From a virus, in the IMG/VR virus record IMGVR_UViG_3300006039_000001: a stretch of 40,646 nucleotides of DNA; one strand, given 5' to 3'. How positions within the stretch are numbered: position 1 is the first letter of the stretch; every line of letters begins with the position of its first letter. Made by a program: the position numbers and the translations under genes. The notes below the pieces were generated by a model. That model was given only the letters and a program-made list of their open reading frames with translations, made no database searches and was not told the DNA's origin. This document shows positions 13,648 through 28,380 of the stretch, piece after piece.

Positions 13648-13745
13648 CAACCTGTAAACGAGTCGGCGACATTGATGTCGTCGAGTTGGGTGAGGGCGCC
13701 CGGGAGCCCCCAGACCTGCGCGAACGCTTGACCCTCGGGTGCAGT

Positions 13746-14069
13746 TTAGCGCCGCCGAAACCACAGCGCAAACTCTGGCCGCACCCACGGCAGCAACCAG
13801 TCGCCCGGCGCAACGTGCGGCCCGTCAGCCACGGTGCCCACGATCAGCGCGAGACAAAGCAGCTCCATCGCGGCCCAAGGAATTGGCCGCTCACCCCGCT
13901 CCCACTGTCGCCACGTTTGCAGGCCTGCGCGGCAAAGCTCGGCCATTTGCGGCTGGGTCAGGGCGGCCTCGGAGCGCAAGGCCTTGAGCGTCTCGGATTG
14001 CCCGTCAAGCGTTGCAAAAGGGCCTTGCGGCCCCGAGCGGTTGGGGTGGTTTGGCATGTCAGGCTGCAT
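13746..14069 (-). CDS. XRE-family helix-turn-helix regulator (Aca-like position)
   Basis: LKALRSEAALTQPQMAELCRAGLQTWRQWERGERPIPWAAMELL is a classic Cro/CI-type HTH. Alternative start at 14057. Last gene of a three-gene minus-strand cassette. Confidence 0.75.
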   Translation of the reverse strand: MQPDMPNHPNRSGPQGPFATLDGQSETLKALRSEAALTQPQMAELCRAGLQTWRQWERGERPIPWAAMELLCLALIVGTVADGPHVAPGDWLLPWVRPEFALWFRRR

Positions 14070-14211
14070 CGCCTTGGCGACAAGTCGCGGGGCCGCCCCA
14101 TGCTTGGCGAAAGATTCGACGCGCGCCCGCTTCGCTCACGCTGATGACCGTTGTCAAAAAGGCGCCCTGGGCGTTGTGGAAATGCCATTCGTATTTTTGC
14201 TTAGCGCTCAT
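14059..14211 (-). CDS. Small hypothetical protein (50 aa, below the ORF-track cutoff)
   Basis: ATG 14211 is preceded by GAGGAG with a 6-nt spacer. Product MSAKQKYEWHFHNAQGAFLTTVISVSEAGARRIFRQAWGGPATCRQGDAA. The stop overlaps the HTH gene start. Confidence 0.5.
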   Translation of the reverse strand: MSAKQKYEWHFHNAQGAFLTTVISVSEAGARRIFRQAWGGPATCRQGDAA

Positions 14212-14250
14212 GGCGATCTCCTCAGTGGTGGGGCCGTAGCCCCGTTTTGT

Positions 14251-14505
14251 TTACAGGTTTGCGGCGATGGCCGCTTTGATCGTTGCGATCCGGTTGTTCC
14301 GGCTGATTTCCGACGACAGATCAGTCACGCCAATCGACGCGAAAAACTCATCCATGAATGGGTCGGGAATCTGTGGCTCTGTGGCGGACTTTTCGAGCGC
14401 TGCCAGCTCCTGATTGCAGTGCGCCAAGTAGGCATCGCGACCTCCGAAGTAGGTGTTCAGTTCGTCGTCGCTGCGGCGGGCGGTGGTGATGTTTTGACCA
14501 GTCAT
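14251..14505 (-). CDS. Small acidic hypothetical protein (84 aa)
   Basis: First ORF after the promoter-like region at 14568-14596. 12 D/E vs 7 K/R by count. No recognisable domain. Confidence 0.6.
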   Translation of the reverse strand: MTGQNITTARRSDDELNTYFGGRDAYLAHCNQELAALEKSATEPQIPDPFMDEFFASIGVTDLSSEISRNNRIATIKAAIAANL

Positions 14506-14567
14506 TTTGTTTCCTATGCCCTGTGATCCCGAGGCGCGGTGGTCAGCGATGTGCTGTCCATGTAGTT

Positions 14568-14596
14568 AATGTATCTCAGATAGACACATAATGCAA
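14568..14596 (-). promoter_or_regulatory. Candidate sigma70 promoter with overlapping palindromes
   Basis: On the minus strand: TTGCAT (14596-14591), 17 nt, TACATT (14573-14568). Palindromes TATCT-c-AGATA (14572-14582) and TGCAA-n7-TTGCA (14592-14608) overlap it. Locally AT-rich. Confidence 0.5.
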
Positions 14597-14617
14597 GCGG
14601 TATTTGCACTGTTACAT

Positions 14618-14917
14618 CTACCGCCGTGATGGCGGGTAAAGCAACTTCTTTTCCGCCTTGGTCAAAGGCATTGAGCCTCTTTCCTGGTTGCATGGATAGC
14701 AGGCCAAAGCATAGTTGTTGGGCTTGTCGGGGCCGCCGTTGGCCTTGGGTGTCAGATGATCAACTGTGGCGATTTCAAATGGCAGATGACACCCGCAGCG
14801 CCAGCACTTATTCTTGCGATTCTCGCCTGCGGGGTATTGCGCCAGTTTCCATCGCAATGGTTTCAAGGGTGCTGCTCCTTTGCCTGCGTGGCGACCGAAA
14901 GCATCGTCCGTCAGCAA
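14618..14917 (-). CDS. HNH endonuclease
   Basis: CWRCGCHLPFEIATVDHLTPKANGGPDKPNNYALACYPCNQERG is an HNH motif. The only upstream start candidate is TTG at 14917, in the loop of a 9-bp hairpin, so the start is uncertain. Confidence 0.75.
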   Translation of the reverse strand: MLTDDAFGRHAGKGAAPLKPLRWKLAQYPAGENRKNKCWRCGCHLPFEIATVDHLTPKANGGPDKPNNYALACYPCNQERGSMPLTKAEKKLLYPPSRR

Positions 14918-26480: not shown

Positions 26481-26986
26481 AGAAGCCCCGCAAAGCCTAC
26501 AAGCCCAAGGGCATGAACCGCGATCCCATGAATGCCGCGCGGACCATGCAGGCACTGATGACCACCGGGCAGTTGAAGCTCATCGTGGTCCCGATGAAGG
26601 ATGCCTGCAAGGTACTTGGCACAACCTTCGACATCGACGACTGGCGCAACTTGGCCGACGCATCAAACGTCGCGCACGAGTTGAAGGGCATGGGTATCGC
26701 CTCAGGCCCACAAGCCGACGAGGTGTTCTCAGCCTTTCACGATGCTCTGGTGGCGCTGCACGAGCGTCATGGCGAGCGCGGCACCTGGACGCCTCGCGCG
26801 TCCGAGTTGCAGGCCGTGCGCGACGGGGTGTGGCTGCACGAGTTCCAGCTCAAGCACTGCTCCATGCTGGAGTTCCAGAACGCCTGGCAGGCGGTGGTCC
26901 GCAAGTCGCGCGATGCGCATATCAAGGGCCACGCGGCTGACGTTGTGAAAGTGCGCGCCGCAGCGCGAGAGGCGGTTGCAGCATGA
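26477..26986 (+). CDS. Hypothetical protein
   Basis: 169-aa ORF, coupled to its neighbours. Confidence 0.55.
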   Translation: MKKPRKAYKPKGMNRDPMNAARTMQALMTTGQLKLIVVPMKDACKVLGTTFDIDDWRNLADASNVAHELKGMGIASGPQADEVFSAFHDALVALHERHGERGTWTPRASELQAVRDGVWLHEFQLKHCSMLEFQNAWQAVVRKSRDAHIKGHAADVVKVRAAAREAVAA

Positions 26987-28380
26987 GCGCCGTCCTTGAC
27001 TATGGGCGCTTCATTGGCAGCAAGCTATCCACGGTTCCGTCCACCGGGATAGCCGGCGCCGTTGTGTTGCCGGAGTCGCTTTTTCCACATCAAGCGATGC
27101 TCACCAAGTGGGCACTCAAGCGGGGCCGGGCCGCGATCTTCGCCGACACGGGCCTGGGCAAGATGCGCATGGAGTTGGCATGGGCTGACGCGGTGCACAG
27201 ACACACCGGCAAGCCGATCATGGTGCACACGCCGCTGGCCGTGGCCCAACAGATCGCAGCAGAAGCCCGAAAGATCGGCATTGTTGCCAAGGTCTGCCGC
27301 GAAGCCTCCGACTTGATCGACGGCATCAACATCACGAACTATGACCGACGCCACAAGTTCGACACCAGCATCTTCGCTGGCGTGGTGCTGGACGAAAGCG
27401 GGTGCATCAAGCATCACGATACCCGCACATTCCACGACCTGACGGCGGCATACCGGGACACGCCTTTCAAGTTGCCATCGAGCGCAACGCCTGCGCCCAA
27501 CGATTGGGCCGAGCTTGGCACGCACGCCGAGTTCCTGGGTGTTTGCACGCGCCAGGAAATGCTGGCCGAATTCTTCACGCACGATGGCGGCGACACCAGT
27601 GTTTGGCGGCTCAAGGGCCATGCCCGGCACATCTTCTGGCGCTGGGTGGCCACCTGGGGCGCCATGATCCGCAAGCCATCAGACCTCGGGTTTGATGATG
27701 GCGCCTACAGCCTGCCGCCGCTGCACCTGCACGAGCACCAGGTGGATTACGAGCTGCCTTTGAATGGCATGCTGTTCGCTGCTGAGGCTCAGACCTTGAG
27801 CGAGCGCCGCGCGGCACGCAAGGCATCCATGGAAGACCGTGTGGCGTCATGCGCCGAGATGGTCAAGGGTGAGCCTGGTGAGCCGTGGGTGGTGTGGTGC
27901 GACCTCAACGCCGAAGGCGATGCCCTCACCAAGGCCATCCCGGGCGCCGTGCAGATTTCGGGAGCCGACGACACCGACACCAAAGAGCGCATCTTGGCCG
28001 ACTTTGCCGAAGGCCGCGCCCGCGTGCTGGTCAGCAAGCCGTCAATCTGCGGATGGGGTCTCAACTGGCAGCACTCCGCCCGCATGGCATTCGTGGGCGT
28101 CACCGACAGCTACGAGGCGTTCTATCAGGCCGTCCGGCGTGAGTGGCGTTTCGGCCAGACCCGTGACGTGCACGTCCACATCTTCGCCAGCAAGGCAGAG
28201 GGCGCCATCGTGGCCAACCTCAAGCGCAAAGAGCGCGAGGCGGGGCAAATGGCCGAGGCCTTGAGCGCCGAAACCCGTGATGCCGTCATGGCTGAAGTCG
28301 TCGGCCTGGTCCGCGAAACCAACAACCACAACGCCGCGCAGCCCGTCGCTGTGCCTTCATTTCTTCGGAGCGCCGCATGA
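26983..28380 (+). CDS. Superfamily-2 (SNF2/DEAD-like) helicase
   Basis: FADTGLGKM (Walker A/motif I), VVLDESGCIK (DExx motif II) and a C-terminal helicase domain …WGLNWQHSARMAFVG…QAVRREWRFGQ (motif VI). Confidence 0.82.
   Translation: MSAVLDYGRFIGSKLSTVPSTGIAGAVVLPESLFPHQAMLTKWALKRGRAAIFADTGLGKMRMELAWADAVHRHTGKPIMVHTPLAVAQQIAAEARKIGIVAKVCREASDLIDGINITNYDRRHKFDTSIFAGVVLDESGCIKHHDTRTFHDLTAAYRDTPFKLPSSATPAPNDWAELGTHAEFLGVCTRQEMLAEFFTHDGGDTSVWRLKGHARHIFWRWVATWGAMIRKPSDLGFDDGAYSLPPLHLHEHQVDYELPLNGMLFAAEAQTLSERRAARKASMEDRVASCAEMVKGEPGEPWVVWCDLNAEGDALTKAIPGAVQISGADDTDTKERILADFAEGRARVLVSKPSICGWGLNWQHSARMAFVGVTDSYEAFYQAVRREWRFGQTRDVHVHIFASKAEGAIVANLKRKEREAGQMAEALSAETRDAVMAEVVGLVRETNNHNAAQPVAVPSFLRSAA

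Follow-up and report, generated by a model that had tools for sequence, protein, structure and literature searches.

A mobile phage cassette joins exchangeable small genes, candidate inhibitors of host defence, to an Aca10-like regulator

Results

Layout and extent of the cassette

We analyzed a 40,646-nt stretch of DNA from an uncultivated phage (the window), which contains an autonomous minus-strand unit at 13689-14636. The unit consists of a promoter, a 55-nt leader, an 84-aa gene (ORF84), a hairpin followed by a GAGGAG ribosome-binding site (RBS), a 50-aa gene (ORF50), and a gene for a helix-turn-helix (HTH) protein (Table 1). A first-pass annotation, made from the sequence alone, had described a cassette at 13746-14617, and rereading of the sequence revealed that all of its parts lie at the coordinates assigned to them. 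The extent was too short, however, as a blastn block shared with a related metagenomic locus, L001, extends leftward to 14636 and rightward to 13689, giving a conserved cassette of ~0.9 kb. The left end of this block contains the hairpin CCGCC-atcac-GGCGG (14621-14635) and also encodes the end of an upstream HNH ORF, namely its last six codons and TAG stop. We found no canonical terminator in the window's 3′ tail; in the sister loci L005, L006, and L009, a canonical GC hairpin and T-run directly follow the HTH stop.

Table 1. Coordinates of the cassette features in the window
Feature	Position	Strand	Remarks
Cassette 3′ tail, common to L001	13689..13745	-	blastn block extends to 13689
Aca10-like HTH_31 regulator, 103 aa	13746..14057	-	Pfam HTH_31 36.3 bits, cut-off 27
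Cargo gene 2, ORF50, 50-aa basic protein, candidate anti-defence	14059..14211	-	Homologues in L003, L013/P0013
Conserved inter-slot junction	14212..14250	-	A-rich tract; hairpin GGGGC-UACG-GCCCC 14230-14243; RBS GAGGAG 14218-14223
Cargo gene 1, ORF84, 84-aa acidic protein, candidate anti-defence	14251..14505	-	Homologues in sister cassettes
Conserved 5′ leader	14506..14561	-	Predicted transcription start near 14561
Sigma-70-type core promoter (predicted)	14568..14596	-	TTGCAT 14596-14591, 17 nt, TACATT 14573-14568
Putative operator, 21-bp imperfect inverted repeat ATGTGTCT-atctg-AGATACAT	14569..14589	.	Fills -35/-10 spacer, overlaps -10
A/T-rich box TGCAAATA	14601..14608	-	Upstream of -35, starting 12 nt before it
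Left end of conserved block	14618..14636	-	90.5% identity to L001, whose upstream gene differs

The promoter contains a conserved inverted repeat

The TTGCAT-17-TACATT promoter proposed in the first-pass annotation is present, and its hexamers and 17-nt spacing are kept in eight related loci. Variants of the -35 hexamer among these relatives are TTGACA, TTGACT, and TTGATA, with L002 reading TTGACA-17-TACATT and L009 reading TTGACT-17-TACATT. Since the -35 hexamer of the window matches at only 3/6 positions, a consensus scanner did not call its promoter. The box TGCAAATA is kept in the window, L001, L003, L006, L009, and L012, and is replaced by TTCAAATA in L002; it may resemble an UP element.

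Comparison of five promoter variants (the window, L001, L003, L006, and L009) revealed that the arms of the 21-bp repeat are invariant, while its centre is variable. The pattern ATGTGTCT-N5-AGATACAT was found once in the 40.6-kb window, where 0.01 occurrences are expected. In L004, a diverged recognition helix in the HTH protein is accompanied by a different repeat at the equivalent promoter position. The inverted repeat by itself is modestly non-random, as 233 of 5000 shuffles scored as well. We infer that the HTH protein binds the repeat at 14569-14589. Two operator palindromes had been named earlier; they do overlap the promoter, but as named they capture only a fragment of the conserved repeat. 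TATCT-g-AGATA is not conserved, reading TACCT in L001 and L006, and TGCAA-n7-TTGCA, whose left arm is the TGCAAATA box, is perfect in no related promoter but that of the window.

The leader and the inter-gene junction are constant

In all loci, conservation of the leader stops at the start codon of the first, variable gene, even where HTH identity is 60-72%. It contains two small hairpins (14541-14559 and 14518-14535) and an AGGA RBS (14512-14515). Because the predicted fold is weak and no better than that of shuffled sequences (z = -0.9), and no compensatory pairs emerged from RNAalifold, we put forward just two small recurrent hairpins and no structured RNA element. The first of these was kept in per-locus folds, with some compensatory changes. 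The leader had no match in Rfam, and its DNA motif had none in IMG/VR. A leader 19-mer had 34 matches among genomes and metagenomes, every one short and due to chance. We dismissed a possible 15-codon upstream ORF in the leader because its ATG is absent in L004 and L007.

The junction between the two small genes is a second constant module, which separates unrelated gene pairs in L001, L002, L003, L005, L009, and L012. The loop of its hairpin is UACG, UUCG, CACG, or UGCG depending on the locus, and on the plus strand the hairpin has an intrinsic-terminator-like score. The RBS of ORF50 is strong, as noted in the first pass, with GAGGAG 7 nt ahead of the ATG.

The HTH protein is related to Aca10

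The HTH gene had been given a start at 14069. Since 10/10 family members begin MxNHPNR, we reassigned it to the ATG at 14057, which is coupled to the ORF50 stop codon as TGAcATG, a junction that is also conserved. The N-terminal arm of the protein (MPNHPNR-GP-GPF) and its Trp-rich C-terminal extension of ~35 aa are both conserved, and its gene has a dN/dS of 0.09-0.10. A search of 5.8 billion proteins yielded nine clusters of the family, every one from uncultivated phages. The family does not occur in 185,579 species genomes or in GenBank phages, where DNA and protein searches gave no match for either the cassette or the HTH protein. A protein-pattern scan recovered one IMG/VR locus (L008), with no match in species genomes or JGI metagenomes.

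Searching the PDB with the family profile revealed that the best relative is Aca10 (7XI5; E = 2.1e-7), with Aca3 second (E = 0.019); the terminal gene of the cassette is thus homologous to a validated Aca. By BLASTP, the regulator is 39% identical to Aca10 over 49 of its 65 aa, within the HTH core (E = 8e-8). In a published collection of Aca10 homologues the threshold was 50% identity over 80-100% of Aca10 (PMC9410906), which the regulator does not reach. Like Aca10, the regulator falls in Pfam HTH_31, and R61, invariant in the family, aligns with Aca10 R44, which is critical for DNA binding (PMC9410881). The regulator is longer than Aca10 (103 versus 65 aa) and has the N-terminal arm and Trp-rich extension as extra segments. 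We propose, from these comparisons, that it is a new Aca10-like protein.

The first-pass annotation had suggested comparison with Aca families, especially Aca2/DUF1870. There is an Aca relative, but it is Aca10. Aca2/YdiL (PF08965; 7VJO) is similar in being an Xre-type HTH autorepressor of acr operons that is longer than a minimal HTH, yet the regulator is not a member: it scored 18.2 bits against a gathering score of 23.8, the match covers the HTH only, and the PDB match to Aca2 has an E of 0.86.

Both small genes are conserved and under purifying selection

ORF84 encodes a net-acidic protein, as described in the first pass (net charge -5, pI 4.6), with homologues of 88-89% identity in the sister cassettes L009-L011. 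Homologues of ORF50 are present in L003 (66% identity) and L013/P0013 (82-84%). The dN/dS values (0.21 for ORF84, 0.11-0.18 for ORF50) reveal purifying selection. Since homologues exist and dN/dS is 0.11-0.21, we conclude that both are real genes.

The earlier statement that neither protein is recognizable also holds. We found no match for ORF84 in Pfam, PHROG, PADLOC, NCBIfam, or the PDB and no fold match for its AF2 model (four helices, pLDDT 67). The AF2 model of ORF50 (pLDDT 91), a beta-beta-alpha-beta fold, had no significant match in the PDB or BFVD, and its sequence matched no family in Pfam, PHROG, PADLOC, or NCBIfam. A beta-beta-alpha likeness of ORF50 to the GIY-YIG N-terminus had an E above 0.06 and was not relied on. 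By sequence and fold, neither protein resembles a known Acr or anti-defence protein; the libraries searched revealed no relation of the cargo to known AcrIC proteins, and PADLOC gave no defence-system match for it.

Distant relatives of ORF84, of 73-84 aa, have the motif EL-x-x-Y-x-GGR ... AIxAN in common; P0016-P0019 are among them. P0014 and P0015, large repeat proteins recovered with ORF84 in a HMMER full-database search, proved upon reading to be compositional artefacts. The ORF84 family was not found in an IMG/VR search.

Sister loci exchange their cargo

The promoter and leader (~90% identical) are retained in 13 related metagenomic loci, and so are the HTH gene and the hairpin between the cargo genes. 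Between these constant parts, the cargo is reshuffled among at least 14 unrelated small-protein families: the 15 proteins of eight complete cassettes form 13 families by BLASTP, and L049 gives one more. ORF84 is partnered with ORF50 in the window but, in L009, with a 68-aa protein; the 74-aa family of L003 is partnered with the ORF50 homologue in L003 and with another protein in L005. Thus, in the guilt-by-association comparison suggested by the first-pass annotation, the HTH gene does recur beside variable small genes, and it does so in varied mobile-element contexts.

This variability bears on the toxin-antitoxin alternative raised in the first pass, namely a type II system of the HigBA2 type in which a small upstream toxin is neutralized by the HTH antitoxin through its N-terminal arm. 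HigA2-type antitoxins (5JAA/5J9I) likewise have an HTH after a short conserved N-terminal segment and are encoded last in a small operon, and the regulator gave weak PDB matches to HigA-2 (E = 0.13-0.8, all insignificant) and scored far under cut-off with two antitoxin models of NCBIfam, MqsA and Y4mF. However, since the near-invariant HTH protein, including its arm, pairs with at least 14 unrelated upstream proteins, it has no cognate toxin partner. No cargo protein matches any toxin family, one is a homologue of a known Acr (see below), and in L012 a cargo gene is truncated while the HTH gene is intact. A toxin-antitoxin pair is therefore very improbable.

The cassette also appears to be mobile. 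Outside it, the loci and the window have only scattered fragments in common. Its neighbours vary by locus and include lysis genes, NinG, NinB, terminase, and methylase; in L003, L006, and L049 it adjoins homologues of the window's 32-34.6 kb genes. Its position differs among related, mosaic phage backbones, and most relatives lack it. These last two observations argue against a developmental circuit, in which a Cro-, antirepressor-, or RstR-like protein would regulate other phage promoters. Such a role would suit an Xre-type HTH and the sub-threshold NCBIfam matches to RstR (23 bits, cut-off 80) and XafT/VC1465 (NF040522; 39.6 bits, cut-off 70). But both matches cover the HTH part only, that to XafT spanning 44 of 111 profile positions (2-45), and the single copy of the operator-like repeat in the window lies at the cassette's own promoter. 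Also counting against this role, the early control region of the window presumably lies elsewhere, at 25.5 kb, where the first-pass annotation placed it. We regard a developmental role as very unlikely.

Sister cassettes carry an AcrIF7 homologue

L006 and L048 each have one cargo gene, directly upstream of the regulator gene, and it encodes a full-length AcrIF7 homologue (6M3N, E = 2.5e-11; also 7JZX and 7VZM), with about half of its residues identical to AcrIF7. It sits behind a promoter and leader 93% identical to those of the window, with a regulator of the same HTH family. These cassettes thus carry a homologue of a validated Acr in the slot that ORF84 and ORF50, which have no such match, occupy in the window. 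They differ from the acrIF7-aca1 loci of Pseudomonas aeruginosa phages (6M3N/7JZX) in that their regulator is not Aca1, and the window itself lacks an AcrIF7 gene. Some AcrIF7 subclusters are without Aca1, and alternative Acas have been raised as a possibility (PMC10155984). The regulator family described here may be such an alternative for AcrIF7 homologues without Aca1.

Discussion

We favor, with a probability of roughly two in three, reading the cassette as an acr-aca-type accessory operon that is mobile, that represses itself, and whose cargo most likely consists of defence inhibitors. The AcrIF7 homologue in the sister slot, the Aca10-related HTH protein, and the variable cargo all support the acr/aca-like interpretation of the first-pass annotation. 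Because the layout is of the anti-CRISPR type and AcrIF7 occupies the same slot in a sister copy, ORF84 and ORF50 are good candidate immunity inhibitors. Points against this reading are the weak -35 hexamer of the window, the modest non-randomness of the repeat, the lack of likeness of ORF84 and ORF50 to known Acr or anti-defence proteins, and the fact that, of at least 14 families of cargo, a known Acr makes up only one. So are the low identity of the HTH protein to Aca10 (39%, in the HTH core), its extra segments at both termini, and the absence of its family from species genomes and GenBank phages.

A rival reading is a generic repressor-controlled moron, whose cargo would serve a purpose other than counter-defence, such as excluding superinfection, host takeover, or lysogenic conversion. 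A moron would suit the lack of any recognizable function in the cargo proteins and the basic nature of ORF50, typical Acrs being acidic. In sister loci, however, an AcrIF7 homologue lies in the same slot behind the same promoter, and extreme cargo turnover around an unchanging regulator is the mark of arms-race genes. We therefore consider a generic moron unlikely, though a credible minority reading.

An operon of the acr-aca kind has a close parallel in acrIC7-acrIC6-aca10 of Pseudomonas citronellolis (PMC7913775, PMC9410881), where two small cargo genes also precede an HTH_31 repressor gene. The Aca10 operator IR2 is 21 bp long and lies between and overlapping the promoter hexamers (PMC9410881), as does the putative operator here, and both promoters have an A/T-rich TGCAAAT-like box at or upstream of -35. 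The likeness is one of geometry, since the Aca10 operator, AATACGCTCA-T-TGAGCGTATT, differs in sequence from ATGTGTCT-N5-AGATACAT (IR1 of Aca10 is ATTTGCAAAT; PMC9410881), and the strict Aca10 form ATACGCTCATTGAGCGTAT is not what the window carries. The 55-nt leader and the inter-cistronic hairpin junction of the window were not found in published descriptions of Aca10 loci (PMC7913775, PMC9410881).

In a model that accommodates these features, the constitutive sigma-70 promoter would fire upon entry of the phage DNA, producing a transcript of the conserved hairpin-bearing leader and the two small cargo genes. The last gene, encoding the Aca10-like protein, would be translated by coupling to the preceding cargo gene through TGAcATG. 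As the HTH protein accumulates, it would bind as a dimer to the 21-bp repeat between -35 and -10 and shut off the promoter. ORF84 and ORF50 would most likely inhibit a host defence system, and as the sister cassette carries an AcrIF7 homologue, CRISPR-Cas is the precedent target. The leader, the hairpin junction, and the HTH gene may act as constant flanks between which cargo is exchanged by recombination among related phages; such a modular design could explain cargo swapping.

In a bolder version of this model, counter-defence genes would be exchanged through a platform with two slots that also exerts control at the RNA level, through the leader, the YNCG-loop junction hairpin, and TGAcATG. 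The regulator, extended by its N-terminal arm and Trp-rich C-terminal domain, would then target the mRNA leader as well as the DNA operator, as Aca2 reportedly does, and ORF84 and ORF50 would found new anti-defence families. We consider this combination a long shot.

New anti-CRISPR and anti-defence proteins are found mainly through guilt by association with Aca genes. Anchored to an AcrIF7 homologue, the rare regulator family described here flags at least 13 further small-protein families, ORF84 and ORF50 included, as candidates, and the constant leader, junction, and regulator could be used to search for more cargo.

Architecture of the cassette and its relatives

The cassette lies on the minus strand at 13689-14636, and every part that a first-pass annotation had described (a promoter, two small ORFs and an HTH gene) was found there.

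Table. Features of the cassette
Feature	Position	Strand	Remarks
GC hairpin CCGCC-atcac-GGCGG	14621-14635	-	also codes the final six codons of the HNH gene
TGCAAATA box	14601-14608	-	sequence reading
Promoter	TTGCAT 14596-14591, 17 nt, TACATT 14573-14568	-	sequence reading
Leader, ~55 nt, 3′ end AGGAAAcaaaATG	between TACATT and ORF84	-	sequence reading
ORF84 (84 aa, acidic)	14251-14505	-	first cargo gene
Junction, 39 nt: hairpin GGGGC-UACG-GCCCC and GAGGAG RBS	between ORF84 and ORF50	-	
ORF50 (50 aa, basic)	14059-14211	-	second cargo gene
HTH gene	start 14057, end 13746	-	last in cassette

The promoter was not called by a consensus scanner because its -35 hexamer agrees with the consensus at 3/6 positions. 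At the left end, the upstream HNH endonuclease ORF runs into a conserved block (14618-14636), which supplies its final six codons and its TAG stop. The window and the related locus L001 have this block in common, despite a different upstream gene in L001. The native HNH 3′ end appears to have been replaced by cassette insertion or recombination.

Nothing similar to the cassette was found in GenBank phages, and the HTH family forms 9 clusters among 5.8 billion proteins. The contigs of these clusters, together with contigs of cargo homologues (cargo being the variable genes between promoter and HTH gene), gave 13 related loci. DNA comparison revealed three constant blocks: promoter plus leader, the inter-gene hairpin junction, and the HTH gene. 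Promoter and leader (window 14501-14636) share 90-93% identity with L001, L003, L006, L009 and L048, and conservation breaks off precisely where the first cargo gene begins, at its ATG. L008, an IMG/VR locus with the most divergent cassette, lacks both. There (150-205), 45 nt containing the hairpin GGCCCGC-gagt-GCGGGCC and an AGGAG RBS separate a DNA methylase gene from the first cargo gene, which may therefore be co-transcribed with it.

The leader is kept even in loci with 60-72% HTH identity. Shuffled leaders folded equally well, RNAalifold detected no covariation, and Rfam gave no match; folds of individual loci retained a 5′-proximal hairpin that shows a few compensatory changes. Between unrelated gene pairs, the junction hairpin retains its GC stem and a YNCG loop (UACG, UUCG, CACG or UGCG). 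We read leader and junction as constant flanks permitting cargo exchange; possibly they also serve mRNA stability, and an RNA-binding role by analogy with Aca2 would be speculative.

On the opposite strand, the junction hairpin was flagged by the scanner as terminator-like: at 14227-14246 (+), with TTTTGTTTA after it, it receives an intrinsic-terminator score. The A-rich tract before the junction hairpin is kept in sister loci. On the plus strand, the hairpin could halt read-through from the convergent lysis operon short of the first cargo gene and the promoter.

The HTH regulator resembles Aca10

Pfam assigned the last protein to HTH_31 (36.3 bits, cut-off 27), in agreement with its annotation as an HTH protein. 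Its start had been placed too early: alignment of ten family members indicates the second ATG (14057), and MxNHPNR opens all ten. The ORF50 stop and HTH start therefore form TGAcATG, a junction shared by eight related loci irrespective of the preceding gene.

Searched against all PDB sequences, the family profile gave a single clear match, 7XI5 (E 2.1e-7), followed by weaker ones to Aca3 (E 0.019), C.BclI (E 0.053), HigA-2 (E at least 0.13) and Aca2 (E 0.86). 7XI5 is Aca10 of Pseudomonas citronellolis, which represses the acrIC7-acrIC6-aca10 operon and depends critically on R44 for DNA binding (PMC9410881); Aca10 belongs to HTH_31 (PMC9410906). By BLASTP, the window protein is 39% identical to Aca10 across 49 residues, and R44 aligns with an invariant arginine of the family. 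However, this identity falls below the 50% level for collecting Aca10 homologues, and the window protein (103 aa versus 65 aa) has both an N-terminal arm showing strong conservation and a C-terminal extension rich in Trp. Judged by sequence, it is Aca10-like, yet not a strict Aca10. The Aca2/DUF1870 relationship suggested earlier did not hold, as Aca2_YdiL fell below threshold (Pfam 18.2, cut-off 23.8) and the nearest relative was Aca10. The best NCBIfam match, VC1465/XafT, was also rejected, being sub-threshold and covering the HTH part alone.

A putative operator overlaps the promoter

A conserved 21-bp repeat, ATGTGTCT-N5-AGATACAT (14569-14589), lies across the spacer and the greater part of the -10 hexamer. 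Across five promoter variants its arms are invariant and 2/5 central bases vary. IR2 of Aca10 is likewise a 21-bp repeat between and overlapping the hexamers. Taken locus by locus, the repeats are no more than modestly unlikely (depending on the locus, between 35 and 791 of 5000 shuffles do equally well); the operator reading carries weight because the repeat recurs at one position and because L004, with a diverged recognition helix, shows at that position a 19-bp repeat of different sequence, ACCGCTACA-a-TGTCGCGGT. We infer that the HTH protein binds this putative operator. An operator had been expected at the promoter, but the conserved repeat is larger than the palindromes proposed: TATCT-g-AGATA is unconserved (TACCT in L001 and L006), and TGCAA-n7-TTGCA, although perfect in the window, is perfect nowhere else.

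The 40.6-kb window holds one copy of the repeat (0.01 expected), which argues for autoregulation by the HTH protein without a genome-wide role. The single copy also speaks against the HTH protein being part of the phage's own circuit.

Cargo turnover between cassettes, and purifying selection on ORF84 and ORF50

The 15 cargo proteins of eight complete cassettes fell into 13 BLASTP families. Families are reshuffled among cassettes: L009-L012 carry ORF84 homologues (88-89% identity) followed by an unrelated 68-aa protein, L003 has an ORF50 homologue preceded by a different first gene, and in L013 an ORF50 homologue comes first in another small-gene cluster. L049 contributes further cargo (1-393), a very acidic protein of >130 aa, far larger than the others, that matched no Pfam or PHROG family.

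In L012 (395-690), a premature stop shortens the ORF84 homologue, leaving 54 aa, and the downstream 68-aa gene and HTH gene are intact; this is cargo decay inside an otherwise intact cassette. The three-gene L013 cluster (1640-2483), led by the ORF50 homologue (82-84% identity), belongs to a phage of lower GC content, where it adjoins a terminase. It is preceded by a related promoter and leader (TTGACG-17-TACATT, then ...CATGGACA... and AGGAAACGAnnATG), the palindromes differ (TACAAC/GTTGTA), and the contig stops short of where any regulator would be visible.

ORF84 (dN/dS 0.21) and ORF50 (dN/dS 0.11-0.18) are under purifying selection and are therefore both genuine genes, as annotated, with homologues in relatives; the 50-aa one escapes the usual ORF cut-off. 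Neither matched Pfam, PHROGs, PADLOC or NCBIfam, and the structure searches proposed for them returned no significant fold match, either for the four-helix ORF84 model (pLDDT 67) or, in PDB and BFVD, for the confident beta-beta-alpha-beta unit of ORF50 (pLDDT 91). A full HMMER scan with ORF84 recovered four distant relatives of 73-84 aa with EL-x-x-Y-x-GGR and a C-terminal AIxAN motif in common; two repeat proteins were judged spurious.

Sister cassettes carry an AcrIF7 homologue

When sister-cassette cargo was compared with PDB sequences, seven proteins had no match. The sole cargo gene of L006 encodes a full-length AcrIF7 homologue (6M3N, E 2.5e-11; residues 7-71 of 74 align with AcrIF7 residues 7-68 of 69) that also matches 7JZX and the AcrIE4-F7 fusion 7VZM. 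Protein, promoter and HTH are repeated without change in L048, from a second sample, where promoter and leader match those of the window at 93% identity. The AcrIF7 gene normally precedes aca1 and encodes a validated inhibitor of type I-F systems. A survey found AcrIF7 subclusters without Aca1 and raised alternative Acas as a possibility (PMC10155984). The window HTH family fits such an alternative Aca for AcrIF7.

In both AcrIF7-bearing loci (L006 1166-1480, L048 436-750), the HTH C-terminal extension is locally different (…VGPSDGALSAAKFAWLILSPWVRPEF…), consistent with a compensated frameshift pair. Since it occurs in two independent samples, it is not an assembly error.

A toxin-antitoxin module, the alternative offered by the first-pass annotation, is disfavoured by cargo turnover, the absence of toxin homology in the cargo and the AcrIF7 cargo of sister cassettes; together with the single operator copy, these also disfavour the phage-circuit explanation. 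The acr/aca-like reading is instead supported, with corrections: the regulator is Aca10-like and not of the Aca2 type, the putative operator is larger, and the HTH protein starts later. We infer that ORF84 and ORF50 are candidate inhibitors. An extended regulator, a direct link to AcrIF7 and a two-slot layout around a conserved junction set the cassette apart.

Genomic setting

Whole-locus blastn revealed mosaically related phages in which the cassette position varies. In the window, as in L001, it has an HNH gene on one side and the lysis genes on the other. In L006 and L049 it adjoins homologues of genes that the window has at 34.0-34.6 kb, and in L003 homologues of those at 32.0-33.8 kb; NinB, a terminase and a methylase are among the further neighbors. 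The gene after the HTH gene is convergent in 8/8 HTH-anchored loci (L001-L008), L012 and L049 agreeing, and a canonical terminator directly follows the HTH stop in L005, L006 and L009. A 465-aa ORF in the window (26983-28380) encodes a helicase with 59-63% identity to its counterparts in EBPR podovirus 1 and in a Manatee Spring Caudoviricetes contig; this suggests a podovirus from an environmental or wastewater source, possibly one infecting Betaproteobacteria.
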